A DNA stretch of 64,000 nt from Bugula neritina (taxonomy: Eukaryota > Animalia > Bryozoa), in the NCBI GenBank assembly GCA_964035545.1, contig OZ037765.1, positions 34,161,504-34,225,503 on the forward strand, given 5' to 3'. The notes beneath the pieces are model-generated. The model saw nothing but the letters and a program-made list of their open reading frames with translations, was not told the origin of the DNA and did no database searches. Below are positions 3,001 through 60,256 of this stretch, one piece after another (position 1 is the stretch's first letter; every line of letters starts with the position of its first letter). Made by a program: the position numbers and the translations under genes.

Positions 3001-6000
3001 ACTAGGATACTGGTGAGGTCTACTGATGGGGTCCAAGTGCCGACCATAGAGTCTAGTGAGTCTGATAATGGTGAGTCATTCTGATAACGGTGAGTCATTC
3101 TAATAATGGTGAGTCATTCTGATAATGGTGAGTCATTCTGATAGTGGTGAGTCATTCTGATAATGGTGAGTCATTCTGATACGGTCTTGTTGAGTCATTC
3201 TAGATCTTTCTATATAAACATCATTATTATACATTTGTCTGATTAGTTCTGTTAGATGAACAGAATATGTTGATACATACATGCTGGGTAAAACATAAAA
3301 CATTGCAAAGCTTATTAATTATAGCAAGTGTTATTTTGATTTTGCTATTACTATCCGTTGACGATATGTATATGAAGGCATCAGTATTAGTTGATGGAGA
3401 CCACTCTAAGGAGTTTCCTGTGAACACAGGAGTAAAACAGGGATGTGTGATAGCACCTACTTTGTTCTCGATTTTCCTCACTGCTGTACTTCAACTAGTG
3501 AGTGAATGTATGCCATCTGGAGTAAGAATCAGATATAGATTTAATGATATTTTCAATGTCAGACGTCTCAGAGCTAAGACGAAGACAGCTACCGAGGCTA
3601 TCCATGAACTGCAGTATGCTGATGATAACATGATCCTGGCTCATTCCGAGGAGGAACTTCAACTTGCTCTCACAGCATTCAATACAGCATACACCTCTCT
3701 TGGTCTAACACTCAATGCCAAGAAGACGCAAGTAATGTACCAACCACACCCGAATACTGAAAGACATGAGGATTTTTCCCTCAAGGTGGGAGACCAAGTA
3801 TTAGACCAAGTCACTACCTTCAACTATTTAGGTAGCTGCCTATCCTCTAAAGCAAACATTGATGCTGAAATAAACCGAAGACTCCAGGCCGCCAGCTCCG
3901 CATTTGGGAGGCTGCAAACACGCATTTTCAACAACAAGGATATATACAGACAGACCAAACTAAAAGTATACAAAGCCATTGTTCTCCCGACACTACTTTA
4001 TGCCTCTGAAACTTGGGTAACCTACAGCCACAACCTGCTGTCCCTCGAGAGATTTCACAACCGCAGTCTCAGGCGAATCCTCGGAGTCAAATGGCAAGAT
4101 AGGCAGACTACTAACAGTGTCCTCGATAAAGCTCAAACTACAAGTATTACTACCATGATTGTGAAGAGACAACTGAAGTGGTCTGGCCATGTGGTAAGAA
4201 TGGATGATAACCGGCTACCAAAAAAGATCATGTACTCTGAGCTGAACACTGGAAATCGCTCACAGGGTGGTCAGAGGAAAAGGTATAAAGACACTCTACA
4301 CGAGAGCCTTAAGCAGTGTTTCATTCGACCACAGACCTGGGAAGTTCAGGCCTTGGACAGAAAAAATTGGAGAACTGTTGTGCATCAAGGGACAGCGATT
4401 TTTGAACAACAACAACGCCAAAAACGAGAGCACAAACGGTTGTTAAGGAAAAGCAGGGAGTTATGCTCTGTTACACACCCACCAGTGACTGACTCTAGTA
4501 ACATTTGTCCTCACTGTGGCAAATTATGCCGATCTCGAATTGGGCTTGTGAGTCACCTCAGAACTCACAACCTCTAGTAGGATTTTACGGATTTTTGAAC
4601 TGGAACGGATTACGGATCACGGCACAGACTAGGGCTTGCAAGCAGACATCATACTCGTCACACGAGGGATTGCTGACACTATATACTATTGTTACTATTA
4701 CTATATGTTGTTATGTATGTATATATTATTACTATTACTATATCATGCTGATATGTATGTATATACTATTGTTACTATTACTATCTGTTGATATGTATGT
4801 GTATATTATTATTACTATTACTATATTATGCTGGTATGTATGTATACTATTATTACTATTACTATATGCTGATATGTATGTATACAGATACAGAGACTTA
4901 CAATGACACATCCTCTACTAAAGCTCATGACACTAAAACCTCATTGAGAGGAGAGAAAGAGAGATCTACTGTATCCATGAAGCCTCCTTTACCAGTGAAC
5001 GGCGCCATCAGGTTTGTTAGTTAACTTACCATAGCATTGCTGCACCTTTAGTCCATGTGTTCTGAAGCTAATGGATAGAGTATTTTATACAGTAACATAT
5101 ATTTAATTACAGAGTGAATTGGGTTTATACTTCAAAGGAACATTGATTCTAACCCTAATTCCATGCACTTTATTCTACAGTAAGGGGAGTGCAATGGGGA
5201 AACCTGTGAGACAGAGCACCCAGTCTAAGTTACCGTGGATGGACAAGTCACTGGAACCAGTGTCTGCTGTAACTCCGCCTACTAAACAGATCTCGTCTGC
5301 TGCACCACACTGGTTGGACAACTCCAAGTCTAACCCTCTCCGGTCTTCTTTAGACGACATGTTGGAGGCTCTGGACAAGTGGGAGCCTGCAGACGTAGGG
5401 CAAGTATTTCAGTAATTTCTCGTTTCTGCTCTCAGTCTAACTTGAAATATATGATGGTTGTTGATTTGATGCACGAGTAATGCTCTGGTGTGTGTCACTC
5501 AGTCACTCAGTTACTACTCTGTTGTGTGCCACTCAGTGACTCAGTTACTACTCTGTTGTCACTCAGTGACTCAGTTACTACTCTGTTGTCACTCAGTGAC
5601 TCAGTTACTACTCTGTTGTGTGTCACTCAGTGACTCAGTTACTACTCTGTTGTCACTCAGTGACTCAGACACTACTCTGTTGTGTGTCACTCAGTGACTC
5701 AGTTACTACTCTGTTTTGTGTCACCCAGCTACTACTCTGTTGTGTGTCACTCACTCATCTCCAACTCCCATCCCGAACCCTAATTTTAAAATTGTGCCAT
5801 TTTTACCTTCTTTGCCACTTATTCCATTATTACCTGTGCCATTTTTACTGGACACCGTTTACCATAGTCTCGGCTACCAGCTATTGCTGACATCTATCTT
5901 CTTTTAGATAATCTATTTTATTGTAAACATGAAACCGTAGCTTGCTTACCATTTATGGAGACATTCTAAATCTTTTCAATGTAGAGCAGTAGAATTTTTT

Positions 6001-23228: not shown

Positions 23229-39932
<16,704 letters not shown>

Positions 39933-40099: not shown

Positions 40100-40702
40100 T
40101 CAGTCTTTTAGTTTACCAAATATATGATGAAACTGGTCCACGTTGTGTACACCGCCAAATCTGATTGGTAGATACAAGTTGACAGAACCATTGTAAGTCT
40201 TAATGTCGGTGTAGACATCCTTGTAGGATACATTGATCTCTGACAACGGCACTATATTTTCAACGGGCTCAATAATATTCCTACGATTGCCCCAAAAAGT
40301 CAGTCTACCTAACCGTACCAACTGTTTTTCTTCGTCTATTGAAATGATACACACTAGTTTTCTGCTGATGTTGCTCAAACAGAAAAGAGTTGCGAGTGCC
40401 AGGCAGCTGGCCGTTAGTACTGTCGTACCAACCTCGCTGTCTAGCTCGCCCTGACTCACGGCTGCTTGTATCAGTGGAGCGCAAGCTACAGTCACTAATG
40501 TTTGGTAAATTTTGAGCCGAGCCAAGAAGCGAGTTGGGCGGATATATGGAAATCTGTATACAAGTTGGTAGTTTGGTTCCGGGTCGTTATTGGTTGGCGC
40601 ATCATTTCCCTGGGTGGAGCTGAAGACTTGCTTGCTGAGATGTTTGAGGGCTACAGATGTTGATGGCAGGGTGCTGACTCTCTGCCTTGTCAATGTCAGC
40701 AT
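40100..40702 (-). CDS. TMEM186: Transmembrane protein 186 (mitochondrial complex I assembly factor), ~200 aa
   Basis: YQLVYRFPYIR..RLKIYQT, two hydrophobic helices, VRLGRLTFWGNRRN. Likely start is ATG 40702, just after a TTCCAG acceptor; the ORF-track start at 40822 is probably intronic. Confidence 0.85.
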   Translation of the reverse strand: MLTLTRQRVSTLPSTSVALKHLSKQVFSSTQGNDAPTNNDPEPNYQLVYRFPYIRPTRFLARLKIYQTLVTVACAPLIQAAVSQGELDSEVGTTVLTASCLALATLFCLSNISRKLVCIISIDEEKQLVRLGRLTFWGNRRNIIEPVENIVPLSEINVSYKDVYTDIKTYNGSVNLYLPIRFGGVHNVDQFHHIFGKLKD

Positions 40703-43700
40703 CTTTAAATATCTGGAAATCATGGATATTGAGTCAATGTAACAGCTCCACTTGTTTGAAACATTTTTTTGTGAAATCATGCATTTGCTTATAGCTCTTG
40801 ACAATATATAGATATAATGCAATTAAAGAAACAAAGGCGAATACATTTAGCTAAATTATTATTAGGCTCACAACAGCTCTTCACGAGAGCTGAAACACTA
40901 AGCAGTTGATATAAATTTATTAAAGGAAAAGCCTGAAACTATCGGCAATAAGTTTACCTGGTGAAGTCAACAGCACTGATAATGGCCTCAGATCTTAGAA
41001 CATGGTTGGCACCAACTGATCTAAAAGTAAGTCAGTGCTTGTGAAAGAACAACTCTGATATATTCTGTTACAACATAATGGGCTAATGGCATACGGACTG
41101 TATTACTGACTCGATTTACAATTTGAATTAGTATTATAAATAGACGTACGAGTAGCTACAGAAAACCTCCACAGCTAGGTTTAAACCAATGTTATTACAA
41201 ACTCACCATTCAATAGAGAGTCAAGCTGCAGCACTAGTAACTGATTTCATTATGATTGTATCATCATTATGATTATGACAATTATTATCGAAAAAAAAAA
41301 CTTTTTTATTTTAGGTTTTAATTAACAATAAATCAATAAGTATAACATTAACTAAGGTTTAGGTTTATTCCTGCGAACTAATCAGCTGTACTTGTACTTG
41401 TAGCCGTATGATATTATCATTATTATTATTAATATTATAACTATTAATATTTATATTAATAATAATATTTATTTATATATATTTTAGTTTTACTATTAGA
41501 CTTAGAGTACTACTATCACTATTACTATTAATATTACTATTACTAATAGCAATAGTAATACTAATAGTAATACTAATATTAATAGTATTAGTATCACTAA
41601 TCAGTATCACATTCACTGCAATCATCATCATGCAATGCAATATTTTTTTAGAATTTAATGATCAAATTTAATCATAATTATTATTATTCGTTGTTATTAC
41701 TGTGACAATAATACTAATTCAGTAATTGTCATTTAAAACTGTTACGACCACTAGTTATTTAATTTAAATAGTGATATTCATATTGATATTGATATTGCAG
41801 CCTTACAACTTTTTCCTAAGTCTAGTTTGAAAAAAGACACATGGAAATCGCTAGAGGCAACACCGAGTTGGGGTGACTAAGTACACTACTATTTTCATCA
41901 AGTCGTGCAATACTTGCTCACCATAGGTGAGACTCTCGAGCATCAGTGCTGCTTTACGCGATTTTCATGAAAACCCAATTGGCAAAAGCACTCCAGCAAA
42001 CGTTCAGAGTTGTCTCCTCTAAACCGTATGACCATTGTTATCTTTTATAGTCCTCTACGAGTTCCACAACACTACAGTGTTACTATACGTATTCATTAGA
42101 ATATTATATGCATTTATCACCTACAAAACTATTTCACGTATGCATTATAATGCAATGATTTTATACATGCATGTCTAATACATCAATACCCTACTGCTTG
42201 CAATATTATTTCTTTTTCATGAGATTGCTCAGATCAAAGCCAGAACCTCGTAAGCAACACACACACACGCACACATGCGCGCGCACACATGCGGACACAC
42301 ACACACATGCACGCACACACGCGCACACACTCACACACACACTCACACACATGCACACGCACACACACATGCAAGCACACAATGAGCTGTCAAAAAAGTA
42401 GATGACTTCAGAATAGAAAAGAAGATTTTACTGAATGTTCTTCGAAATGTCATCAATAGCCAATGATGTTCTAGTATTCAAACTATCAGCCTATCACAAC
42501 ATTGGGGGCATCAAACAAGCACCTCCATCTACCCACAGGACCCCAGCTATTTCCTCTTAACAAATGAAGCCTTCTCAAAGTTATTAAACGTGATTGGTTT
42601 TTAATAAACAACAAAATGCAAATTATATCAATTTTACAAAAACATTAAAGCACTCTGGGACTGCTACACGACAATCAGAGGTTAAGATTATGTAAATTGG
42701 TTATATGAATAAATTTTATGTTAAATTAAAATATATTTGTTTACATGTTTGTTGCATCTGTTTGAGTAACTTTAAATTGCTGCTCCCTTGTTGGCAATTG
42801 TCAGTGAGATGTTGATTAGTATAATAATATGTCACAGTTATACTCTCTCAGTATGTCACAGTTACTGTGTCACTATGTCACAGTTACACCCTCACTATGT
42901 CACAGTTACACTCTCTCAGTACGTGTCACAGTTACTGTGTCACTATGTCACAGTTACACTCTCTCAGTACGTGTCACAGTTACTGTGTCACATACTGCTG
43001 GTGTAATATCAGTATACATTAGGGTTAAGTTGTTTATTATCTAAGTCATGGCACTAAACATCACGTGACAGATGTATCCCATGCAGTGAGATGACAAGCC
43101 ACTACAAGTACATCCATTATGACACCCACCCCATGTTCCCTAAGTGACCCTGGCTCCCTTTACATGTCAACAAAATATTATTTTTAATATCATATTTTCT
43201 ATCTAAGAAGGTTTCCTCTACTGTGTCAGACTACATCATTCAAATAGGATATTAATCAGATCTGGAAGGCTTCGTGTTACTGTAAAAGTTCTTCAAAACA
43301 GGGAGAATTTGACCAATGAGCAATGAATATTTAAGTTCACATTGCCACAGTTTTGGGAGGCGAAAGTGTAAACAAGACAAATTTTCTCACGTCAGGAGTG
43401 GAAATGAAGTAATCGGAGAGGTAATCCAATTAGCGGAGTAATAAACAAGATGAAGCTCTTCACCTGTAAGGAGATACTACACAACGTGTTGTGAAATCCT
43501 CCAACCAGCTGCCAGAAGCATAACAGTTCAGCTGCTGAGGCAGGAACCGTGAATACAGCTAGATAAAAACTGTAGCAAAAGAGGTGACATTCTACGGAGG
43601 TGTCAAGCTGCACCCGAGCTAAAAGTTGTTAAAATAATCAAAGAACTGAGGCTATTGAAGTTTCTCTGTTGCTGTACACACGCACGCACGCACGCACGCA

Positions 43701-45357: not shown

Positions 45358-48300
45358 TTATGGTGTCGGAATCACAATGTCCTCTGATTCTGTTCCGTCG
45401 TATATTTTCAACTTCACTTCCTGTTTGGAGACCGAAACTAGCGCCCATGCTTTCTCACCAGGGGGCGTTTCAATAACTCCCCGTAAACCAATGTGATGTT
45501 GACCACTAGGGCTAATATTGTGAGAGTATTGATGTGTGTGGCCATGCAATATCAAGATGACAGAGGGGGATGATTCCAACATGGCTAACACCTCTTCATA
45601 GTTCCAGAGGAGAGACTTAGAGGTGGAAGCTGATGGGAGTATGGCGCAGTGGTCTACAATAATACATAATATAATATAATGTAATATTGTGCAAGATAAT
45701 ATAATATAATGTAATATAATATAATGTAATATAATATAGTGTAAGTTAATATAATGTAACAGAATATAATGTAATATAATATAATATAATGTAATATAAT
45801 ACATAATATAGTGTAAGATAATATAATATGGTATAATATAATAACATAATATAATAACTATAATATAGTATCATGTAATATAATATAATACAGTGCAATA
45901 TAATATAATGTAGCATAACATAATATAATTAGTGTATTATACGGAACAAATTATCTTGCTGCCCACAGACCATTATTGCGCAATATGCTGAAATGTCTAG
46001 CCTACGTTACCAGTTCAACAGAAATCTGGGTCACTTTATTTTACACCTCAAGTTACCAGCTTTAATGTCAGCTTAAAGTCTTGTGAAAGACTCAATAGCT
46101 GTCTGGTAGGAAAGTTGAGTGACTGTAGAGAATAAACCAGTGCTATAGGAGTTGAGTTATTACATAATGAGCTAGACAGGTAGAGATTCTGTAGCCAGGT
46201 AACTAAGGGATAATAAATCACCTTGGCCTGAGAAATTAATCAAATAATTACCAGAATTAAGTAATGAATCATTATTAGACTGGATACTGAAGCAATGACA
46301 ACGCATGGCCCAATCAACCAATCACAGTTGAGGAAATGAAGTGACTGTTTTTTGTGGACTATAAATGGGGAGTCCAGACCACAAGTATGACAGAAACACA
46401 CTGAAACAAGTCACAGTGCCAACACTTGGAGATAGAAATTGGTGAGTAGTTAATTACTTGGCTAACTGAGCTTTGGAATAAAGTGCACTTGATTAGTATT
46501 ATACTAAAGATATTGTATATAGTTGTAGGGGTGTACCCTCCTAGAGGTGTACCCTCCTGGAGGTGTACCCTCCTGGAGGTGTACCCTCCTAGGGGATACC
46601 CTCCTAGGGGTGTACCCTCCTAGAGGTGTACCCTCCTAGGGGATACCCTCCTAGAGGTGTACCCTCCTGGAGGTGTACCCTCCTAGGGGATACCCTCCTA
46701 GGGGTGTACCCTCCTAGAGGTGTACCCTCCTAGGGGATACCCTCCTAGGGGTGTACCCTCCTAGAGGTGTACCCTCCTAGAGGTGTACCCTCCTAGGGGT
46801 GTATTCTTCTAGGGATGTACCCTCCTAGAGGTGTAACCTCCTAGGGGTGTATTCTTCTAGAGGTGTACCCTCCTAGAGGTGTACCCTCCTAGGGGTGTAT
46901 TCTTCTAGGGGTGTACCCTCCTGGAGGTGTACCCTCCTAGAGGTGTACCCTCCTAGGGGTGTATTCTTCTAGGGATGTACCCTCCTAGAGGTGTACCCTC
47001 CTAGGGGTGTATTCTTCTAGGGGTGTACCCTCCTGGAGGTGTACCCTCCTAGAGGTACTGGTGTTATGAGGATTAAAACTCTTTTTTTAGCACCACCCAT
47101 TTTGCATAAATTTTCTTCAACTATTTGGAAATAAAGAAGTGTCAGAAATAAAAACTGATTTAAAGGTTTGGTGAGAAATAAGCAGGTCATGTTCAAATTA
47201 CACATGAATTAGGAAATGGAGTGAGAATAGTAAATCTAGTAGTATTAGTATTACTCATTTCTGTGACAGACTTATTAAGAGATGGAAATGTAGAAACTTG
47301 TGCAGTTGCTATCCAGAAGTTAACTTTGTGTTACAGTACCAATTATTTGCTTATTTACAGAATAATTAAAGATGGCTTCCACAAAAGTACAGCTTATAGT
47401 GCTAGCAGTAATAATGGCAGTGTTGGCTAGTCAATGCAATGCTTTTCCGTCCTGCAAACCAGACTACACTCCTGTAAGTATATCTGTTACACCCCTGTAA
47501 ACATAACTGTTACACCCCTGTAAGTATATCTGCTACACTCCTGTAAGTATATCTGCTACACTCCTGTAAACAACTGTTACACTCCTGTAAGCATAACTGT
47601 TACATCCCTGTAAGTAAGTATGCTACACCCCTGTAAGTATATCTGCTACACCCCTTCAAGTATATCTGTTACACCCCTGTAAACATATCTGTTACACTCC
47701 TGTAAGTATATCTGCTACACTCCTGTAAGTATATCTGCTACACCCCTGTAGTAAGTACAATATATTATTTAGACTTAATAATGCTGGTTTCTCACACAAA
47801 GTATAAATGGCGTCACAGGAAATGCCAACTTGGACACATGATGGTAGCTACCTTCATGTGTCCAGCAAAAATAGATATCAAGTTGGATGTCATGACGAGG
47901 GACCGTCAGTTTTGTGATTTTGTGAAATCAAAACCTTTCATCATCAAATTGAAAAACTTCCACCAGTTTAGTGTAGGTCCTAAGCAGTTGAAGATAGGAC
48001 TAGGAGGGGGGGGGGGGTTAACTTCTCAAATAGTTTAAAAACTAATTTAAGACAAACATTTGTTGATATTATGCTAGAGAGTGGGCTAGCTATCAAATAA
48101 TTAATAAAGTAACACATAGGGATATTATGTTCTCCATTGTATATGCTGTCATGACGTATCACACTGCTATAACTGGTCATTCATTCAATTACTGCGTGTA
48201 GATACCACAATGATGTAATAGTTATATTACATTCTACGGTGTATTAGATGACTGGTGGAGGCGCTGCCTCATTTCCCAGTAATTATGTAACAATTAGATG

Positions 48301-51300
48301 AGTCAGCGTGTAGCCATTGTTGTCAGCCAGGGAGGAGGTGTAATTGACACCAATAGGCTGAGAGTAACAAACCAATAGATTGTATATAAACATGCTAAGA
48401 CGTGACTAGGTGTGTGCGTGACATATTGAGTTGTAGTTCTACATATTTGTATAAACCTTACCACATGCATAGTATTATTGCATATGTGTTATATGACCCA
48501 TATATAACACATAATATGTATAAATATTATGTATAAATCATGTAATATATAAACAAGAAGATTGGGTATATTAGTATGGCTATTTCAACTAAACATCTTG
48601 TATTCAATCAATGAATTTATTTTCTATCGCAACTATTGTATACTGCAACGAATTACAGCATATTTCATTCTATTGCAATTTGCATTATGTTAGTGTATTG
48701 CATTCTATTGCATTGTGTTATTGCATTGTATTTTGTTGTATTGCAGTGCACTACACACGCCAGCTGCTGTAACGGAGCGTGTCTAACAGACGCCTTCTCT
48801 CCAAACACTAAAGTGTGCAGATTTGTCCCCTCAGTGCCTCCCCAGGCTGCCTGTAGAGCTAATGGAGTGCGAGTGAGTATATACTTTACTAATAGACTGG
48901 CAGCTAGGCAGCGTCTTAGGTTAGATGTGGCAGCATCAGGAAAGATTAGATGCGGTTAACCACAGAAATGTGTTCTCATAACAACTTGACATGTGGTTAG
49001 AGAGAGAGAGAGAGAGAGAGAGATAGGTTACAAATATAGTAGTAGTAGTTGTGTTGAAGAATGTAGCACAGATTATGGCAGGGAAGAGATACACAACTAA
49101 GAGCTATAGAGTATAGGATGATGTTAGAGTACTACTTGCAGTGCACTGTAGCCTTAGTGCCTACATAGTGTATCAGTACTGGTGGAGCCCCACACTTTGT
49201 GGCTAGCTCTAAGGCAAAGGAAGGAAAAGCACTCTAGTTTTCATCATTTAAATATCAATGATTTCACAAATTTTCCTGGTATTACAAGAAATTCATTAAA
49301 ATATTATTTCAAAAATGCACAAAAGCAGTTTTGAGTGAAATGTCTGCAATATTTGCATAGCAAAGAGGTTATTCAATGTACTGTCAATGGCGTGTTTCAT
49401 GTGGGCACATCCACTCATCATAAGTAAATAGTTGGGTACAGGAAGCTGGGTATATCATGTCATTTCCTTGTTTATATTATGTAGTCAGTATACACATGTA
49501 GTATACTGTAGTATATACATGTAGTATACTGTAGTATACACATGTAGTAGTATACTGTAGTATATACATGTGTATACTGTAGTATATACATGTAGTAGTA
49601 TACTGTAGTATACACATGTAGTATATACTGTAGTATACACATGTAGTATACTGTAGTATATACATGTAGTATACTGTAGTATATACATGTAGTAGTATAC
49701 TGTAGTATACACATGTAGTATATACTGTAGTATACACATGTAGTATACTGTAGTATATACATGTAGTAGTATACTACAGTATACACATGTAGTAGTATAC
49801 TGTAGTATACACATGTAGTACACTGTAGTATATACATGTGTATACTGTAGTATACACATGTAGTAGTATACTACAGTATACACATGTAGTAGTATACTGT
49901 AGTATACACATGTAGTAGTACACTGTAGTATATACATGTAGTAGTATACTACAGTATACACATGTAGTAGTATACTGTAGTATACACATGTAGTATACTG
50001 TAGTAGACTGTAGTATACACATGTAGTATACTGTAGTATATACATGTACTATGCTGTAGTATATACATGTACTATGCTGTAGTATATACATGTAGTAGTA
50101 TACTGTAGTATACACATGTAGTATACTGTAGTATATACATGTAGTATACTGTAGTATACACATGTAGTAGTATACTGTAGTATATACATGTAGTAGTATA
50201 CTGTAGTATACACATGTAGTAGTATACTGTAGTATATACATGTACTATGCTGTAGTATACACATGTAGTATATACTGTACACTCGAATTATATTACATAT
50301 TGTGTATTATTTATTTCAGTGTTCTAAGGATCGGGATTGTTGCTCCGCATACTGTGTATACAGTACAGGAAAGTGTGCATAGGCAATAGTAACACTAACT
50401 CATTCACCAAGAAGCCTTCAATGAATCTCTAGTTTAGAAGGAAGAATTACTAGTTCCCCTAACGCCATGGTTACTGATATTCACAACCACTATCTATTAT
50501 TTATAAATGGAGATACGTCACTCCCTTTACACCGTTAGCATGCCACGATCTCTACACTATTGGAAGTTGTCTCTCCACCCCACTTGTAATCATTTTGCCA
50601 AAGTTGTTATGCATTCTGATTTCTACTGTTACTATAATTTATTTCTGTTTTTGCATAATATTGCTGTAGCTTCAGATATCGCTATTTATAATTATTTTCA
50701 TCATATCAATACCTATTTTATATACTTTAGTCTATTCTTTTGTATGATTGCTCTTTGCGTATACAAATCAGATAATAAATTATAACACTCACTGAAAACC
50801 ACAACTCGTTGCTGACTTGAATCTGCCTCTTCCAGTTGCCGAGACAGCCACGCCAGCTGCTGTCGGCAGACACCACCGTTGTACTTGACCAGCTGCTGGG
50901 CTCCTTCCTCCAGCCCCTCTGAGCTGTTCTGGTCAGGGTTGGAGTTGGCCGCCATGTACTGTTGGCCTGCGAGGTACGCACTTTCATCCTCGGACCTGCC
51001 CAGCACCGAGACGTCGTACGAGTCGAGACATACGAGTCTTATGTTCCGGTATATTCTAGAATAATATCCAATGTCGGGAGATTCCCCGCCACTGGGCAGA
51101 ATGAACTGCTGGACGACCTGACGGTGGGAGAAGTTGTAGAGGTCATGGTTACCTAGCGTGTGATAGACAGGCACACCTGCCTTCGATATCTCCTCCAACA
51201 CCGTCTCCATGGCAACCTCACACTCGTCTTTACACTTGCCGTCAATAAAGTCACCTAGTTGAAGCACAAACTCGGCCTTAAAGTCCTTGAACTCTGCTAG

Positions 51301-51438
51301 AGCGTCTTTGATATGTTGGATGGAGTGACGGTAGAACCTCGGCGTCCCGGAGTACGACTTCGCGTCATCGTGATCAGCATACTGGATGTCCGAAATAACT
51401 CCAAATCGAAACACACTACTTTCAGTATGAGAGGTCAT
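45358..51438 (-). CDS. ADPRM: Mn-dependent ADP-ribose/CDP-alcohol diphosphatase (313 aa; exons 51438-50793, 45653-45358)
   Basis: Metallophosphoesterase motifs DIQYAD, QLGDFIDG, LGNHD, YNGG, H (VVFNH) and GHTH, plus GVIETP. A phase-1 GT-AG junction gives 942 nt. Confidence 0.93.
46310..46441 (+). promoter_or_regulatory. Candidate promoter and non-coding exon 1 of the nested knottin gene
   Basis: CCAAT boxes at 46310 and 46318, TATAAA at 46360-46365, donor G|GTGAGT at 46442, matching acceptor TTACAG| before 47361. Confidence 0.65.
46528..47055. repeat. Minisatellite, ~16-bp unit, in intron 1 of the knottin gene
   Basis: (aggtgtaccctcctag)n. Confidence 0.9.
47372..50382 (+). CDS. Nested secreted double-knottin / conotoxin-like peptide (96 aa; coding exons 47372-47473, 48747-48872, 50320-50382)
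   Basis: MASTKVQLIVLAVIMAVLASQCNA|FPSCKPDYTP^CTTHASCCNGACLTDAFSPNTKVCRFVPSVPPQAACRANGVR^CSKDRDCCSAYCVYSTGKCA*. Both junctions are phase-0 GT-AG (GTAAGT and GTGAGT; TTGCAG and TTTCAG). Confidence 0.88.
49490..50280. repeat. Minisatellite in the last intron of the knottin gene
   Basis: (tacacatgtagtatactgtagta)-like repeats. Confidence 0.9.
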
Positions 51439-52748
51439 TGCAAGCAGGGAATGTCTGCAATATCACACAGATGTTTACAAAATATAAGTGAGCAAAGTGC
51501 TAAATTTTGTTAGACATTTGTTCTAAAAACTGATTTTCAATAAAGTAATCAAATAAATAAAACATCGAATTAAGTTTTACTGAACTATATGATGCATAGA
51601 ATGATATGCAAAGTATTTGAGAGTTGAATTCCCTTGCTTTTAGAGGAGACTACTCCGAAATTATCAGATAATAGCCATGAAAAATATATACCAGCCTAAA
51701 TATTATACACTATACTATACACTACATATACTATATATTATACTATACACTATATACTATATATACTATATATTATACTCTACACTATATATACTATATA
51801 TTATACTATACACTACATACACTACATATACTATATATTATAATATACACTATATGCTACATATACTATATATTATATTATTCACTAATTCACTGATTAG
51901 GTGTAACCTAAAACTATAAAGTACAAGTTACACTCAAACACACTTTCAAATGGTATAAAATGAAGTATAATTATAACATTAACTGAACGAAAATAACTAT
52001 AAAATTAAATCCGCCACACTATCATTATGACTATTAGTGTTACTAAATGTAAATTATAAGAATAAGTATTTGACTTAGAGCTAGTATAGCTTTATTAAAC
52101 TTATACTAACGTTACAGCTATGACTTATAACTATAACTAATTAAGAGTATCAGTATAACTATTACTATGAGTCTGACAATGAGTATGACTATGAGTATCA
52201 GTATGATCATGTGTCAGTATGACATTCAGACTGAGTATAAGAATAACTATAAGTATAAATACTAGTGTTACTATTAGTATAACTATAAGTATAACTTATG
52301 TTCTTATAACTTACAACTTATAGTTTTAGTTATAAGATAATTAAGTATAGGCCTACTGTAGAAATCTAACTCTTACACTTGGAGTTATTGTTAATCGTAC
52401 AGTTACTGTTAGTGTTACACTTACAGTTACTGTTTTAATCTATCTCTAAAAATAACTACAAGTAAAAGCTAGTATAACTATTAGTATTACTTTAACTATA
52501 GTCTTAGCCTATAACTAAAAGTAATACTTATACTATAACTATAAAACAAAGAATAAGAGTCAATAATATTAATTGTAAACTCGAGTTTAAAGTATTACTA
52601 TTAGTATTACTATTAGTACTAGTAGTACAGTAGTAGTAGTACTATTAGTACTAATAGTGATACACTTACAGTTACAGTAAATGTAATACTAAGTCTAATA
52701 CTAATAGTAATAGTAATAGTAATACTGATAGTACTACTAGTAGTATAT

Positions 52749-53342: not shown

Positions 53343-54419
53343 CTAGAGTCCTTGTTGGGCACGCCGGTGCTTGGCTTGGCATGTACGCAGTTTCCGTTTC
53401 ATACGGCATACGGATCCCTTGAGCTGGAAGAGTCCTGTTGTAGTGTTAAGTAGGTCTGGTGCCAGCTGGGTGAACTCTTCTTGTAATCGTAGGAGGCGTT
53501 CTTCTACTGTGGCTAGTCGTACCGGGTCGGGGGACGGTGTCCGTCTGCGGCGTAAGGGTGGACTGGGGGACCTGGTCCGTCTCTTCGCCATAGTAGGGGA
53601 GATCTCTCCTTCTTCTGGATACGTAGTCTCCTCGGGGGTGTATGTAATTTGAGGGCGGTCAGACACCAACGGGGATTGTTGGCGGGCGTTGTCTAACACA
53701 CGTTGGAACCCCGAGGATAGAACGGCTAGTAGCATGGCCTTCTTTACCAGAAGTCGTATATGTGTGAGGAACTCCGGGTACAGCTTAGCGTCGACCACAT
53801 AGTTTTCTCCAGGGAAACAGCCCGCCGCTCTGTGTCTGGTGACGGGGTAGGGATACACATCATTGTACCCGCAGGGGCAGAAGGTCAGTAGGAGATGAGC
53901 ATTGACGTGTAGTTTAAGGGAGCGGTGTGAGGCGCAATCTTCACCACAGATCTGGCATCTCGTCCGTCCTCTGGACCCCCAGGCTGTTTCTATTTCTTCT
54001 TCGGTTTGTGGAGACACCCACCGCCAACGGCGGCGTAGTGGCTCAGGCCGATCACCACTAGCATAGTCCTCCGGATACGGAGCGGGAAGTGTTCTATCCC
54101 GTACCCTGGTTGTAGCGGGTCGAGTGTAATCTGAAAAAGTTTCAACAGTGTTAGTACATTACACTGCTGTGTTGTCAGCTTGAACAGCTTGGCAACTCCT
54201 AATTCAGTTACCTCGTAGAGATTAATGATAGTGAATAGTCAGATAGAACCGTATTGCAACGAGATTATAAAAATCTCTAAGTCAAACTGAGTTCTTACTA
54301 CGGTATTTCACTAACCTATCTCCAGCTCGATTGACTCAGTGAGTCAGAGCTGAGCGATGCAATCTAGTTTCGTATTAAGATATAGTTAACTCACCCCACG
54401 ATCTGTTGTCGTAAGACAT
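53343..54419 (-). CDS. Spliced accessory ORF3 of the Gypsy element: zinc fingers, RS/SP-rich tract and coiled coil (~270 aa)
   Basis: Frame is open from the acceptor at 54130 (TACTAAC branch 54156-54150; TTTTTCAG) to TAG at 53343. Phase-compatible donors at 54394 (after ATG 54419) and at 59875 (in gag). Confidence 0.72.
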
Positions 54420-54443
54420 ACTGAATATGTGAAATGGTTTGAA

Positions 54444-57400
54444 CTACTGCTTAGAAACACGTCTACTCTTGACTGCATCAGCGTATGAAAAGATCGAGCA
54501 ACGTGGTTGGGGTGCGTGATTAAGACTTTGTGCACCCGGCGGATGGATTTTGTTTCTACTTCCGCCGATACAAAAGTTGATATTTCTGTGGTGTTGACAA
54601 CTCCCACATTTGCTCGATTCTTTTCTCGTACGGTTTTCCCCTAGACTTTCATGTGTGCCGCTTTTAACGCAGTCACATACGAAGTCCTTCAAGTATGCGG
54701 GGGGTTGCCTCGTACGCTGTCCCCTTTCTAGGGGGGGTGACACGCTTGCCGGTTCGTTAGTAGGGGCCTCTAATGGCGTCTCTACTTCACCGTCAGCAGT
54801 CACCTCTTCTTGTTCTCCGGATGGAGCCCCTCCCTCCGTGAGGGTTTGCACTTCCGGAACCGGCTCGGTTTCTGGAAGTGATGGAATTAGACTTGGCGGT
54901 GGCGGACACGCTTCTGTTGGTAGAAGCTGCCGCTCCTCTCTCACCAAGTTTTCTTCCCGCGGTATGACCACTTCGTATTCAGGTCCATGCCGCCGTCGCC
55001 CGCGCGTTGTTGTCTGCCTTCTGGGCTCTAACAACGGGGGGGCTTCTCCCACTCCGCCGGGGCTAGCCCAATATGGTTTCAAGCGAGACTCATTCTGGAT
55101 AGATACCTGTCCTGAGCGCTCGATCTTGTACGTATGATTGGGCATAGCCTCGACGACCACGTAGGGGCCTACGAACTTAGGCTTCAGCTTATCAGCCTGT
55201 CCGCGGCGCCTACGGTAATTGACCATCCACACCTTATCTCCTCTTTGATAGAGGGGTGGTTCATCGGAATCTTCGTGCCGCACCTTCCACTGCTGTTGAC
55301 GCAGTATCTCGTGTGCGGCCTTCATCCGTTCCACTAGTTCACTGGCATACTCATGGACTGAGTTATCCTGCTCTGGAACGTGATATGTGAGATGGTCAGG
55401 GACACGAGTCTCTCTCCCGAGCATCAAGAGGTTTGGGGTCTCACCAGTACTGGTGTGTGGGGTGCTACGGTATGCACGCATGACTTGCGGCAACACCGTA
55501 TCCCATTCCTCTTGACCTCGTCCAAGGAGGAGACTCCGGAGCGCATCACCTAGCATCCGGTTGTTGCGCTCCACCACCCCGTTACCTTGAGGGTGGTAGG
55601 GGGTGGTCCTGCTCTGATTTACTCCCCAGAGGTGGCAAAGGTCGCTCATCAGTTGAGACTGGAATTGAGCGCCTTGATCAGAGTGTATCTGTTCGGGAAG
55701 CCCAAAATAACAGAATACATGTTGGTCTAGTGCCCTGGCCACTGTTGGAGCTGATGTATCTGGGATAGCCAGAGCATCCGCCCACCTAGTAAAGTGGTCG
55801 GTTAGTACTAGGATCCAATTATTGCCTCTGGGGGTCAGGGGCATGGGTCCGACTAGGTCTACAGCGACTACTTGCCAGGGCCTACCAGCATATAGCCTCC
55901 GCCGTCCTGCTTCACCAGGGGGGCGGCTATGCTTACTGGCCTGGCAGATCTCACACTGTTTGACTCTGAGCCGGACATCACGCTCCATCTGCGGCCAATA
56001 CCACCGGAGTCGTAGTTTGGATATCACTCGCTTGACCCCTGCGTGGGCCTGCTTGTGAGTATCCCAAATCAACTCACGGCGGATGGCTGTGGGGCAGACT
56101 ACCCTCTTCCTTTCCGGGTGTCTGCCGCTGGCAGCTAGAGAGATGGTTAGCAACCCATCCTGCCCGATCCGCAGCGAGTCCCAACGCTGACAGTATAGCC
56201 GGAACTCGGCGCATCCCTGTCGTATGCGTTCCTCACTGGGTCGTCGCCCTTCCCTTTTGGCCCGGTAGATGTCTGCCACGACTCCAGGCAGCTCTTCTTG
56301 GAGCTTCTTCAGCTCTCGAACATTACCGGCCAGTACAGGGTTGGCGCGGAGGTTTTGTACATCCTCCGGGGACTCATCAACCCTTTGCCTGAGTTGACCT
56401 TGATCCCAGTCAAACGGCGCTCCGTGATGAGCCAGCGTCTCCAACTCACATCGTGGGGGACCTCCATCCCTCCTCTCGATGTTGAGACACTGTTTGCAAC
56501 CTCCGTCAGGTCGGCGACTCAACCCATCCGCATTGCTGTGTCTCTTGCCCGGCCGGTGTTCGATCCGGTACGAGAATTCAGCTAGGATTTCGAGCCACCG
56601 GGCGACCTGACTAGAGGGCTCTGCTCTCCTGCACAACCAGATCAGCGAGGCATGATCCGTACGCAGCCGGAACTTCCTGCCATACAGGTATGGTCTGAAG
56701 TGCTTCACTGACTTGATTACTGCCAGCAGTTCCTTGCGGGTAGTGCAGTAATTTCGTTCAGCGGGAGAGAGAGACTTGCTGTAGTAGGCTACTACTACTT
56801 CTCGGCCTTCCTGCACTTGTGACAGCACAGCGCCAACATTCTGGTCACTGGCGTCCGTGTCTAGGATGTACTCCAGAGTGGGGTCTGGGTAGGCCAAGAT
56901 GGGCGCCGTTAGGAGGCAGCCCTTGAGGCGGTCGAACGCTTCTTGTTCGACTGGGGTCCACTGCCACGTCACTCCCTTTGCGGTAAGCCGGTTTAAAGGC
57001 TGGGCTATGCCCGCAAAGTCTGGTATGTATTGTCTGTAATACCCTACCAGCCCCAAGAAAGCCCGGAGTCCGGTCAAGTCTTGGGGGGTGACCCAGTCTT
57101 CTACTGCCCGTACCTTTTCGGGATCCGTTGCCACGCCGTTCCGACCGACAACGTGCCCCAGGTACTTACTTGACCTCCGGCTGCAACAGAGCGCACTTGG
57201 AAGGCTTGAGCTTAAGACCGGCACCTCGGAGTCTCTCGAAAACCTCCTGCAGACGACTGACATGTGTCTCGAAGTCTGGAGAGATTACGATGACATCATC
57301 GAGGTAGACCAGCAGTGTCTTCCAATGGAGTCCGCTAAGGACTTGTTCCATCAGCCTCTGGAAGGTGGCTGGGGCGGAGGTTAACCCGAAGGGCAGCACC

Positions 57401-59016
57401 TTCCACTTCCACAGACCGTCCCGTGTGATAAACGCCGCTTTCTCTTGGGCGTCGGGACTCAGAGGAACCTGCCAATAGCCGCTTAGCAAGTCTAACGTAC
57501 TGAAGTACTTGCTGCCGGCTAGGGCGTCCAATGACTCGTCAATACGAGGTAGAGGGTAGGCGTCCTGTATGGTTACGCTATTGAGTTTGCGGTAGTCCAC
57601 ACAGAACCGCCAACTGCCGTCTTTCTTCCGGACCAGTACGACTGGCGAGCTCCACGCACTATGGGCGGGCTCTATCAGTCCCCGGTCCAGAAGATCCCGT
57701 ACTTGTCGGCTAACCTCCTTCTCTTTCTCCGGCCCCAGCCTGCGTGTGGGCTGCCGGACAGGGACTGTCCCTGCAGTCAGCGGTATTTCGTGTCTGACAA
57801 TTCCAGTCAGTCCCACGTCATGCTCTCCGCTGCTGAACACATCACCGTAGTCGCGTAGTAACTTAGCCATAGCTTGGCGCTCTCTGTTACTCGCGCAGCC
57901 ACCACTGGCTGTTTCGTATAACTCCCGGAGATGTGTTGGGACTGCCCCTCGTCCCTGAATAGGGTGTCGAGGGAGTGCCTCTGTCGCATCACCCAGCGAC
58001 GGGCCTACGTCTCCCTCTTGAACAGAGTGGAAACGGCCCAGCATCGACCCAGCCGGGAGCTTGATAGGCTCGGTAAAGGGGTTGACGCACTGCACTAAGA
58101 TCTCCCCTTGCTCAGTCAGCTGATTCAGACTGCTGGCAAGTTGGATCTTTTCGTGCGCGCCTTCAACCACCCCGAGTCCAGAGATCCGGCTACTGTTCAC
58201 CCTGCAGTGAATGGTAGCCCGGGAGCGGCCTGGTATGGTACGGTTGCGTACCACTTGCACACCTCCCACTAAAGGGCAGCCGAACTTGTCGACGCAGGCG
58301 AGTTCCCGCCCGGACATCATCATTGCAGATCTGCTAAAATCTATGTGACATCCGTGCCGTTTAAGGAACGGCATCCCGAGGATAGCATCCTCCTTGAGCT
58401 GACTGACGATGAACGTCTCTTGGATCGTTTGATCGCGGACTCGTCCCGTCAGCTCAATTATACCATAGAAGGGAAGGCACGACCCGTCAGCTAGGGTGCC
58501 GTATTCCCCTTCGTATGCTTCCATCTCGCCCCTGACCCTAGCACTGAGGGTGTCGAAGAGTTGGCGGCTTAAGAGGTTTGTGGTACAGCCCGAATCAATG
58601 AGAAAAGTAACAGCTTTGCCTTCCAGTTTACCGGGCAAGAAATAGCTGTTCCCATGGGGCTGCACCTGAACTCTCCCTTCAGGCCTTACTCTCGCAGGGA
58701 GTACCTCCCTCGCTTTGGGTCGCGAAGGAGGTCTCTTGGGGCGGTGATAGGTAGGCCTCGGGGGTGCCGAGGCTGGATTCTCAGCTACCTTTGTGTGCTC
58801 CCATCCAGATTCTTGGACTTGTAGCCCTGTGAATCTGTTGTGAAGGGGCATAGAAAAGGTAGCCGCGGGGCGAAGCCCCTTGCTGGTCCGTCGCGGCTGT
58901 TGCCACTGTTGGTTGCCAGTACGCGGTACCCGTCTGGGTGACCTGCGTTTCTTCTTCCCTAGAGGTTTCGTCGGCCCGCGGAAGGTGGGAACATCTGCGG
59001 GCCGCGGTAGTTTAAC
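54444..59016 (-). pseudogene. pol: Pol (protease-RT-RNase H-integrase), broken by one 4-bp duplication at 57164-57171
   Basis: FLIDSG, YLDD, DTDAS, H-H-C-C zinc domain, DLVGP/HSDQG/ERNNR and GPY motifs, split over ORFs 57166-59076 and 54444-57263. Confidence 0.93.
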
Positions 59017-59918
59017 CCCTGATTTAGGAAGGGACAATATCGGCGGAAATGTCCTTGATTTCCGCACTCCCAGCAAAAACTGACTGTTTCTCCCTGTGGC
59101 GGCGCCGATGGCCGCATGGGCTCAGGGGCGGTACTCACTGGGTTTTGTGGTGTCAGTGTTGCTATCAGGTTGGCTAGCATGTCCGTCAGTTGAGTGACTT
59201 TTGATGCCGTCGCCAACTGGGACACGGCAGCCGCGGCGGGGGTTTCCTCCCCTTGTCCCGCGGCCGTGTCTGCGCGGTCTATCTCCACTTGGCGGGAGCT
59301 TCCGCGACTTTTATGCATTTGGTTAGCTAGGAGGTAAGCTTCCCCCTCAGTCAGAGCATCTTCAACGGTGGTGACTCCCCTAGCTAGAAACTGGTGGTGG
59401 AGACCCAGATCGTCGACAGATGCTATGAAAGCGTCGAGGGTGTACCTCTCGCGGTTGACTGGGGGCAAGTCGCTGTACGCGATCTGTGCCAGCTTCATGA
59501 CCGCGGCGGCATGCTCCCGCAGCGGGGTGCGGGGATCACGCCGCAACCTCTGTAATCGGGCCCTGGCATCTGTAGCCGAGAGGCCAAAGCGGGCCCGCAG
59601 AGAAGCAAAGATATTATCAATGTCTACGCCCAGCCCATAGGGCTTTGCTTTGTCCATCAATGCCATTCTAAGCTTCAGCAGGGCCACCCTAGGGGGCCAC
59701 TGAGCGACGTCCATTACGTCGCTAAACTCTTGAATAAATTGTTCCACCTCCTCTTCACCCGTGAAGGTGGGCGCCTTTAACCTGTAGCGGTCTTCAGCTA
59801 GTTCTCGCGGAACCCTTCGCTCTTCTACTACATGGTTAACAGGCATTGTCTCTACAGCATTGTCTCTACGCTCACCTTCGATTGCCGGTGGTTGAGTTTC
59901 AGCATTTTCAGTCTCCAT
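58959..59918 (-). CDS. gag: Gag (319 aa)
   Basis: ATG 12 nt after the PBS; capsid-like APTFTG..VEQFI; zinc knuckle CWECGNQGHFRRYC. Confidence 0.92.
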   Translation of the reverse strand: METENAETQPPAIEGERRDNAVETMPVNHVVEERRVPRELAEDRYRLKAPTFTGEEEVEQFIQEFSDVMDVAQWPPRVALLKLRMALMDKAKPYGLGVDIDNIFASLRARFGLSATDARARLQRLRRDPRTPLREHAAAVMKLAQIAYSDLPPVNRERYTLDAFIASVDDLGLHHQFLARGVTTVEDALTEGEAYLLANQMHKSRGSSRQVEIDRADTAAGQGEETPAAAAVSQLATASKVTQLTDMLANLIATLTPQNPVSTAPEPMRPSAPPQGETVSFCWECGNQGHFRRYCPFLNQGLNYRGPQMFPPSAGRRNL

Positions 59919-59930
59919 CTTGGATGCACT

Positions 59931-59948
59931 ATCCCACCGCTGCCACCA
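59931..59948 (-). promoter_or_regulatory. Primer-binding site, tRNA-Leu type
   Basis: TGGTGGCAGCGGTGGGAT lies 1 nt after the 5' LTR and is complementary to the tRNA-Leu 3' end ...ATCCCACCGCTGCCACCA. Confidence 0.85.
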
Positions 59949-59949
59949 C

Positions 59950-60256
59950 TGTTATGTTTTTCAGATTTAGGGTTGATATGCTATCCAGAGAGTCTATTTA
60001 TCTAGTATAGAACTGCACCAGGCTAAGTCGAGTGAACGAGTATATTTTATACACAACTATACATTATAAAAACACGATACATTATTTCCAAACAAGTTAC
60101 ACATCTAATCTATCTCACACTCTAGCTTCGACTGCGTTAGCAGCGGGAAACTACAATTGCTGCTAACTATCAACTACGCTAATTGGCTATCCATTGTTCC
60201 GGGTCAATTACGCGACCCTACATGTTGTGCTGCTGGTAGTTCCACGAACCACCACA
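59950..60256 (-). repeat. 5' LTR
   Basis: 307 bp; no difference from 52749-53055 found on manual comparison. Confidence 0.97.

Follow-up and report, generated by a model that had tools for sequence, protein, structure and literature searches.

We analyzed a 64,000-nucleotide (nt) stretch of the genome of the bryozoan Bugula neritina (GenBank assembly GCA_964035545.1, contig OZ037765.1, positions 34,161,504 to 34,225,503 of the forward strand), referred to below as the window and numbered from its first letter, with emphasis on a small double-knottin gene predicted to encode a secreted peptide with two C-C-CC-C-C cysteine motifs, whose introns likely keep the trace of the duplication behind it. 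The gene is nested antisense within the sole coding intron of an ADPRM-like gene (Table 1). Its three coding exons, of 102, 126 and 63 nt (the last including the stop codon), each have a length that is a multiple of three, and they are separated by two phase-0 introns of 1273 nt (GTAAGT...TTGCAG) and 1447 nt (GTGAGT...TTTCAG), with a Cys codon directly 3' of each. Both introns cut immediately 5' of the Cys II codon, one per motif, the spacing being C-x6-^C-x5-CC-x3-C-x11-C in knot 1 and C-x6-^C-x5-CC-x3-C-x6-C in knot 2 (^, intron). This homologous placement and phase had been proposed in an earlier, sequence-only reading of the locus, and both the exon model and the splices seen in contigs assembled from RNA bear it out. 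A Pro-rich linker of 11 residues lies between the knots, and the reading frame of exon 3 ends one residue past the final Cys of knot 2. The middle exon holds Cys II to VI of knot 1, the linker, and Cys I with loop 1 of knot 2, so that five of its Cys belong to knot 1 and one to knot 2. Every donor of the gene has the canonical form GTRAGT, and the splice contexts (CCT^TGC and CGA^TGT) show no proto-splice resemblance at either intron.

The gene model was compared with sequencing runs. The run search covered 21 runs from 8 studies, and 7 of these runs were compared with the window (X9 twice), all as assembled contigs, over the regions 47060-48990 and 50285-51450; assembled contigs lose rare forms, and the filter also omits records. 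RNA evidence on exons 1 and 2 comes from three runs (X9, X11 and X13) of two studies. The joint 47473>48747, with GT..AG borders, occurs in RNA contigs of X9 and X11, and in X13 the letters of exon 2 form the loose end at 47473. Exon 2 letters leading into exon 3 letters were found in all three runs (just 9 letters in X13), and exon 2 letters precede 50320 in X9. A 294-nt contig of X9 leads from the 5' non-coding exon through exon 1 and a single exon 2 as far as exon 3; in X11, exons 1, 2 and 3 are joined without a break in one contig of 519 nt. Exon 2 is included in the assembled form in 3/3 RNA runs, with one copy in both of the runs that span it (X9 and X11). Among the records listed, exon 3 is preceded in X9 by exon 2 and by unspliced intron 2 only, and in X13 the single listed record whose loose end lies at 47473 is exon 2, though that run retains 60-nt side records at depth 5-9 next to main paths with depths in the thousands. 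A joint from exon 1 to exon 3 was not among the records listed in any run, all of them contigs that lose rare forms. In the sampled runs the two-knot message is best taken as the predominant form, beside which a minor skipped form may exist. In RNA contigs of X9 and X13, the loose end that precedes 47368 consists of the last letters of the 5' non-coding exon. Additionally, DNA contigs of X20, which represents a second lineage, pass from exon 1 into intron 1 and from exon 2 into intron 2 at the positions seen in the window, and the exon structure is common to that lineage.

Table 1. Features of the double-knottin gene and of its host gene (window coordinates)
Feature	Positions	Strand	Evidence and remarks
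Host gene, last coding exon	45358..45656	-	Open reading frame, splice sites, RNA contigs
Host intron, 5136 nt, phase 1	45657..50792	-	Encloses the entire knottin gene on the opposite strand
TATAAA box	46360..46365	+	From sequence; 5' of the non-coding first exon; inferred function
5' non-coding exon	46390..46441	+	Donor GTGAGT at 46442; 3' end demonstrated by RNA contigs, 5' end approximate
Intron of the 5' untranslated region (UTR)	46442..47360	+	Carries a 16-nt minisatellite at 46526-47056
Coding exon 1	47361..47473	+	ATG at 47372 (coding part 47372-47473); predicted signal peptide of ~24 residues, Cys I and loop 1 of knot 1; RNA contigs of X9, X11 and X13
Minisatellite, 23 nt x 12.6	47464..47750	+	Repeat unit includes the intron 1 donor
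Intron 1	47474..48746	+	Phase 0; spliced in X9 and X11
Coding exon 2	48747..48872	+	126 nt, phase 0-0; RNA contigs
Intron 2	48873..50319	+	Phase 0; contains a long low-complexity array (about 49497-50279)
Coding exon 3 and 3' UTR	50320..50621	+	Coding part 50320-50382, stop 50380-50382; Cys II-VI of knot 2; UTR reaches at least 50621; X9 contigs
AATAAA, possible poly(A) signal	50774..50779	+	Sole copy within 50380-51000
Host gene, first coding exon, ADPRM-like metallophosphoesterase	50793..51438	-	PF00149, E 4.8e-9; named ADPRM homologues; RNA contigs of X1, X2 and X9

Contigs of X1 and X2 contain the host exon without any exon 3 contig, and X19 yielded nothing; expression of the knottin gene may be limited to certain stages or tissues. 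Contig depths in X9 were 216-231 for the knottin gene and 18-39 for the host gene, which is not a measure of expression rank, and in the DNA run X20 they were ~45 for exon 1, ~50 for the intron and ~45 for exon 2, which is not a measure of copy number. The minisatellite at the start of intron 1 supplies further donor-like copies, which were considered as alternative splice sites and rejected: no joint from them was among the records listed for 47060-48990, and all 8 copies lie 3' of an in-frame stop. Unspliced intron contigs were seen in X9, where the source may be pre-mRNA, pre-mRNA of the host gene or DNA. Intron 2 stays open for 28 codons (48873-48959), with one Cys, and its retention would yield a message for an intact knot 1 with a tail. 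One contig of X9 passes through the 3' UTR from 50551 to 50621 and then re-enters at 50551, so that this allele may carry a 71-nt tandem repeat, unless the assembly has looped.

The divergence between the runs and the window, of about 5% (30/658 letters in the host exon, X1), permitted an estimate of selection. Exons 2 and 3 together carry eight nucleotide differences, six synonymous and two non-synonymous, the latter both in one codon (Ala to Glu); none alters a Cys, and exon 3 is without any difference in X9. The ratio of non-synonymous to synonymous differences per site (pN/pS), calculated on 142.4 and 43.6 sites respectively, is 0.10 (binomial p 0.003); the counts are small, and 4/8 of the differences come from the loose-end consensus lines of X9 and X13 rather than from the difference table. 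These values show that the knottin gene is functional and that purifying selection has acted on it across the ~5% divergence of the two lineages.

The product is predicted to be a secreted peptide with a signal peptide, as the first 24 residues are hydrophobic (windows of nine residues reach a mean Kyte-Doolittle hydropathy of 3.4; the cleavage site is inferred). The predicted mature chain comprises 72 residues with 12 Cys, and since it has no propeptide and its linker has no dibasic site, the peptide likely stays a two-headed single chain, with heads that differ in charge (knot 1 neutral, knot 2 net +3). Both motifs display the six Cys in C-C-CC-C-C spacing that characterize the inhibitor cystine knot (ICK), and on their sequence they are likely cystine knots; knot 2 also matches the beginning of the scorpion ICK consensus C-x6-C-x4-D-CC-x2-4 (PMC5308243). 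In a single-sequence model of exon 2 alone, a fragment without Cys I (predicted local distance difference test, pLDDT, 81.7; predicted template modeling score, pTM, 0.43), residues 11-14 and 22-25, which surround Cys 12 and Cys 24, are modeled as strands that would form a β-hairpin about Cys V and VI, and a Foldseek search with this fragment gave 0/24 rows at E <= 0.001.

Several observations make the ICK assignment tentative. Pfam scans of single exons, each holding part of a knot, gave matches to ICK toxin families alone, PF08116 (E 0.12) and PF08093 (E 0.18), both below the cut-off, and the top Protein Data Bank (PDB) sequence match of exon 3, again a partial-knot query, was an ICK, 1hp3, at E 0.62. 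Synthetic mussel peptides with an identical Cys array have been reported to adopt a different disulfide pattern (PMC4558851), and the C-C-CC-C-C array by itself leaves ICK connectivity unproven. As to function, a role in surface or immune defense (antimicrobial, chitin-binding or deterrent), as in tachystatin-type knottins, has in our judgment an even chance of being correct, because secreted knottins have such known roles (summarized in PMC2853521); the suggestion is drawn from family resemblance.

Searches with the individual exons brought no relatives to light. Among 1.84 billion representatives, a phmmer search with exon 2 yielded no credible homologue, and its sole match, an alpaca repetitive protein (E 9.4e-4), was dismissed as chance. 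Exon 2 words had no match among proteins of 47-151 amino acids, and exon 1 words had none among proteins of 23-74 amino acids, the size of a single-knot product. In the metagenome pattern scan at the Joint Genome Institute (JGI) 0/597 matches were confirmed, PHROGs returned 0 families for 3/3 exons, and the PDB searched by sequence with exon 2 or with an exon 2/3 alignment gave chance matches only. The best score in the ESM Atlas was 0.85, which we treat as a lead.

We then considered how the two knots acquired introns at the same place. A second intron placed at random would share this codon border with a probability of 1/290 over the whole reading frame, 1/192 with the phase-0 bias allowed for, and 1/81 within knot 2, and because coincidence would thus amount to about 0.3-1.2%, the shared position is likely the trace of a duplication, as the sequence-only reading had argued. 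The origin that we consider probable is that the double knottin arose from a single-knot gene already having a phase-0 intron before Cys II, through a doubling in which the two copies were joined within coding sequence. In this ancestor, a first exon would have closed after Cys I and loop 1 and a second would have opened with Cys II, and the present middle exon would be the head of the ancestral second exon joined to the tail of the first, with the join in what is now the linker. Unequal crossing-over between exons could have produced such a gene, or the ancestor may have been duplicated in tandem and the copies then fused by a deletion; the copied knot would have carried its intron along, each knot would have retained its own copy, and the frame symmetry of the middle exon would be a by-product of the doubling. 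The join in coding sequence is likely, on exon anatomy, because a single-knot gene has no equivalent of the middle exon and intronic breakpoints, which copy whole exons, cannot create one. The middle exon is likely the product of the duplication rather than the unit copied. It had been described from the sequence as a symmetric module; its symmetry stands (phase 0-0, 42 codons), and its status as a module does not, since the exon straddles both knots.

Genes of the type required for the ancestor exist: in the tachystatin-type, single-knot ICK genes of wasp naickins and bee amickin-1, a phase-0 intron comes before Cys II (PMC2853521). Naickin-1 to -3 and amickin-1 differ from the bryozoan gene in having a single knot where two are found here, each split by an intron (PMC2853521). 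In both bryozoan knots the intron agrees, in its phase and in lying before Cys II, with the intron described for the insect genes, and it may match theirs down to the codon (PMC2853521).

Other observations count against a simple doubling of one gene. The two knots share 0/14 identities at the non-Cys residues of the loops of fixed length (shuffle p 0.36), the linker shares 0/11 with the residues preceding Cys I, introns 1 and 2 have no significant match (best E 0.23), and no paralogue or homologue of the peptide, in particular no single-knot paralogue, was found in the protein, metagenome and word searches. As the knots and both introns retain no detectable likeness, the duplication is likely old. 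Fusion of two already different, related knottin genes fits equally well, and it is indistinguishable from duplication of a single gene because only the Cys and the intron position are shared. A DNA match between exons 2 and 3 (16/36, p 0.007) was rejected as a duplication trace because four Cys codons account for it.

The sequence-only reading had also proposed that valency is set by splicing or exon number, the symmetric middle exon being skipped or varying in copy number to give peptides with one, two or more knots, and this we regard as unlikely. With 126 nt in phase 0-0, exon 2 can indeed be skipped with the frame kept and six Cys left in knottin spacing, which is confirmed as sequence arithmetic and not as an observed transcript. 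X-tox genes, moreover, are reportedly subject to alternative splicing. Such a switch also draws some support from the placement of X-tox defensin-like motifs on separate exons (PMC4558851), and from the three RNA runs behind the evidence on exons 1 and 2, read from contigs that lose rare forms. The messages speak otherwise: exon 2 was in the assembled form of 3/3 runs, exon 3 was preceded only by exon 2 or intron 2 among the X9 records listed, and the predicted 47473/50320 junction was sought in the RNA contigs, where rare forms are lost, and was not among the records listed. X13 keeps side records of low depth, yet its one listed loose end at 47473 is exon 2, and the uniformly canonical donors give no hint of a skipped exon. 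Introns 1 and 2 are also too dissimilar for homologous recombination between them to be likely today. Equally doubtful is a contraction, in which the gene would be the remnant of a longer multi-knot gene and the middle exon a true repeat unit multiplied by intronic recombination. Once present, a middle exon can multiply without frame change, but tblastn across the 64-kb window reveals no additional trace of the three exons, neither a copy nor a relic, the messages of the second lineage carry a single middle exon, and the first middle exon would still require a join in coding sequence.

A single breakpoint on the intron side would account for both acceptors before Cys II if only the 3' exon (Cys II-VI) had been duplicated together with its acceptor, the upstream copy then losing its stop while former 3' sequence supplied it with a new Cys I and a donor. 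As this would predict, neither the linker nor loop 1 of knot 2 resembles exon 1 (0/11 and 0/6 identities), and the genome often duplicates short stretches at donors (11/42 arrays against 3.2 expected); the scenario is nevertheless quite improbable, as it requires a Cys to have arisen de novo exactly six codons 5' of a new phase-0 donor, as in exon 1. Very improbable, in turn, is the duplication of an intronless knot inside one exon, followed by later gain of both introns at the same place. Intra-exon duplication is reported for Hc1a-type spider toxins (PMC13172734), and the modules of mussel multi-CRP-I share one exon (PMC10138031, PMC4558851), which lend this route precedent; the low chance of two introns on the same border and the lack of a proto-splice-like sequence at either site oppose it. 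Doubling of a gene that already carried the intron, with the join in coding sequence, remains the origin that we favor.

Compared with known two-headed peptides, the bryozoan gene combines familiar features in a different arrangement. The bivalent spider toxins Hi1a/Hc1a and DkTx resemble its product in having two ICK-type domains with a short linker in one secreted chain (PMC13172734), and the two domains of DkTx are unlike each other, as are those of the bryozoan peptide (PMC13172734). In the family of Hc1a, known from Hadronyche spiders, both domains lie in one exon, 3' of phase-1 and phase-2 introns and of a propeptide (PMC13172734), whereas the bryozoan gene has no propeptide, an intron inside each knot and a record of purifying selection, and so departs from the one-exon arrangement. 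Scorpion ICK genes, too, have phase-1 and phase-2 introns 5' of the mature peptide (PMC5308243). The Mytilus multi-CRP-I genes are close in other respects, as lophotrochozoan genes whose first exon is non-coding and whose secreted products contain 2-4 C-C-CC-C-C modules in tandem (PMC4558851, PMC10138031). Their modules, however, are all in the last exon (exon 4), 2-4 residues apart and preceded by a propeptide, and the family is large and positively selected (PMC4558851, PMC10138031); the bryozoan gene differs from this pattern in its 11-residue linker, its intron-split modules spread over three exons, its lack of a propeptide and the fact that no paralogue was found. In the known spider and mussel double knots the mature region is without introns (PMC13172734, PMC10138031, PMC4558851), and intron-driven repeats are, according to the authors of one of these papers, unreported for bivalent toxins (PMC13172734). 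Lepidopteran X-tox and nasonin-6 of Nasonia share with the bryozoan gene tandem disulfide-rich modules with one intron per module (PMC4558851, PMC2853521), and differ from it in their defensin-type fold and in a whole domain per exon, a true exon duplication, where the bryozoan exon borders fall inside the domain (PMC4558851, PMC2853521). The bryozoan introns lie inside the domain, in contrast to classical exon-shuffled modules with introns at the domain borders. Within the knottin literature, PMC2853521 was the only source found that names a phase 0 intron, and no literature on bryozoan knottins or bryozoan antimicrobial peptides was found by a search that left subscription journals largely outside.

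The host gene was followed in the same runs. Its intron is spliced out in X1, X2 and X9, which belong to three studies, where the loose end before 50793 matches 45627-45656. The closest named relative of the host protein comes from the bryozoan Watersipora subatra, with 47% identity, against 41% for Lingula (23 matches); this one gene makes a bryozoan origin of the window likely. The antisense nesting in this ADPRM-like intron, the 5' non-coding exon and the purifying selection on the knottin gene are new here.

In the wider window, 11 of the 42 minisatellite arrays carry a donor motif in their unit, and 0/5000 shuffles reach that number; examples lie at 2477-2552, 3061-3181, 33271-33715 and 47464-47750. 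The Bugula genome seems prone to short duplications where exons meet introns. On the forward strand, many exons at about 25300-38500 belong to what we take to be a Brr2/SNRNP200-like helicase gene, with a minisatellite in most of its introns. A single-exon gene of the TMEM70/TMEM186/TMEM223 family lies at 40100-40822 on the reverse strand, its match (E 0.003) being below the Pfam cut-off. We presume the GC-rich region at 53343-59951, on the reverse strand, to be a Ty3/gypsy-like retrotransposon, with presumptive gag-, protease/reverse transcriptase- and RNase H/integrase-like frames in separate open reading frames. The open reading frame at 3243-4577, on the forward strand, is presumably the reverse transcriptase of an element like the long interspersed nuclear elements, with a C2H2-like motif at its end.

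This is a single small gene, which limits its wider interest. Its doubling is legible from its introns, and it offers a test case for the origin of two-headed disulfide peptides, one showing that symmetry does not by itself identify an exon as the copied unit. One may speculate, at a low though not negligible likelihood, that bryozoans and insects have in common one ancient knottin lineage marked by the intron, and that the bryozoan two-headed form carries a frame-neutral cassette by which the number of knots varies across species or life stages. Knottin sequences are too divergent for deep phylogeny, and the intron position held in common with the naickins would, if confirmed, be a rare marker of descent.

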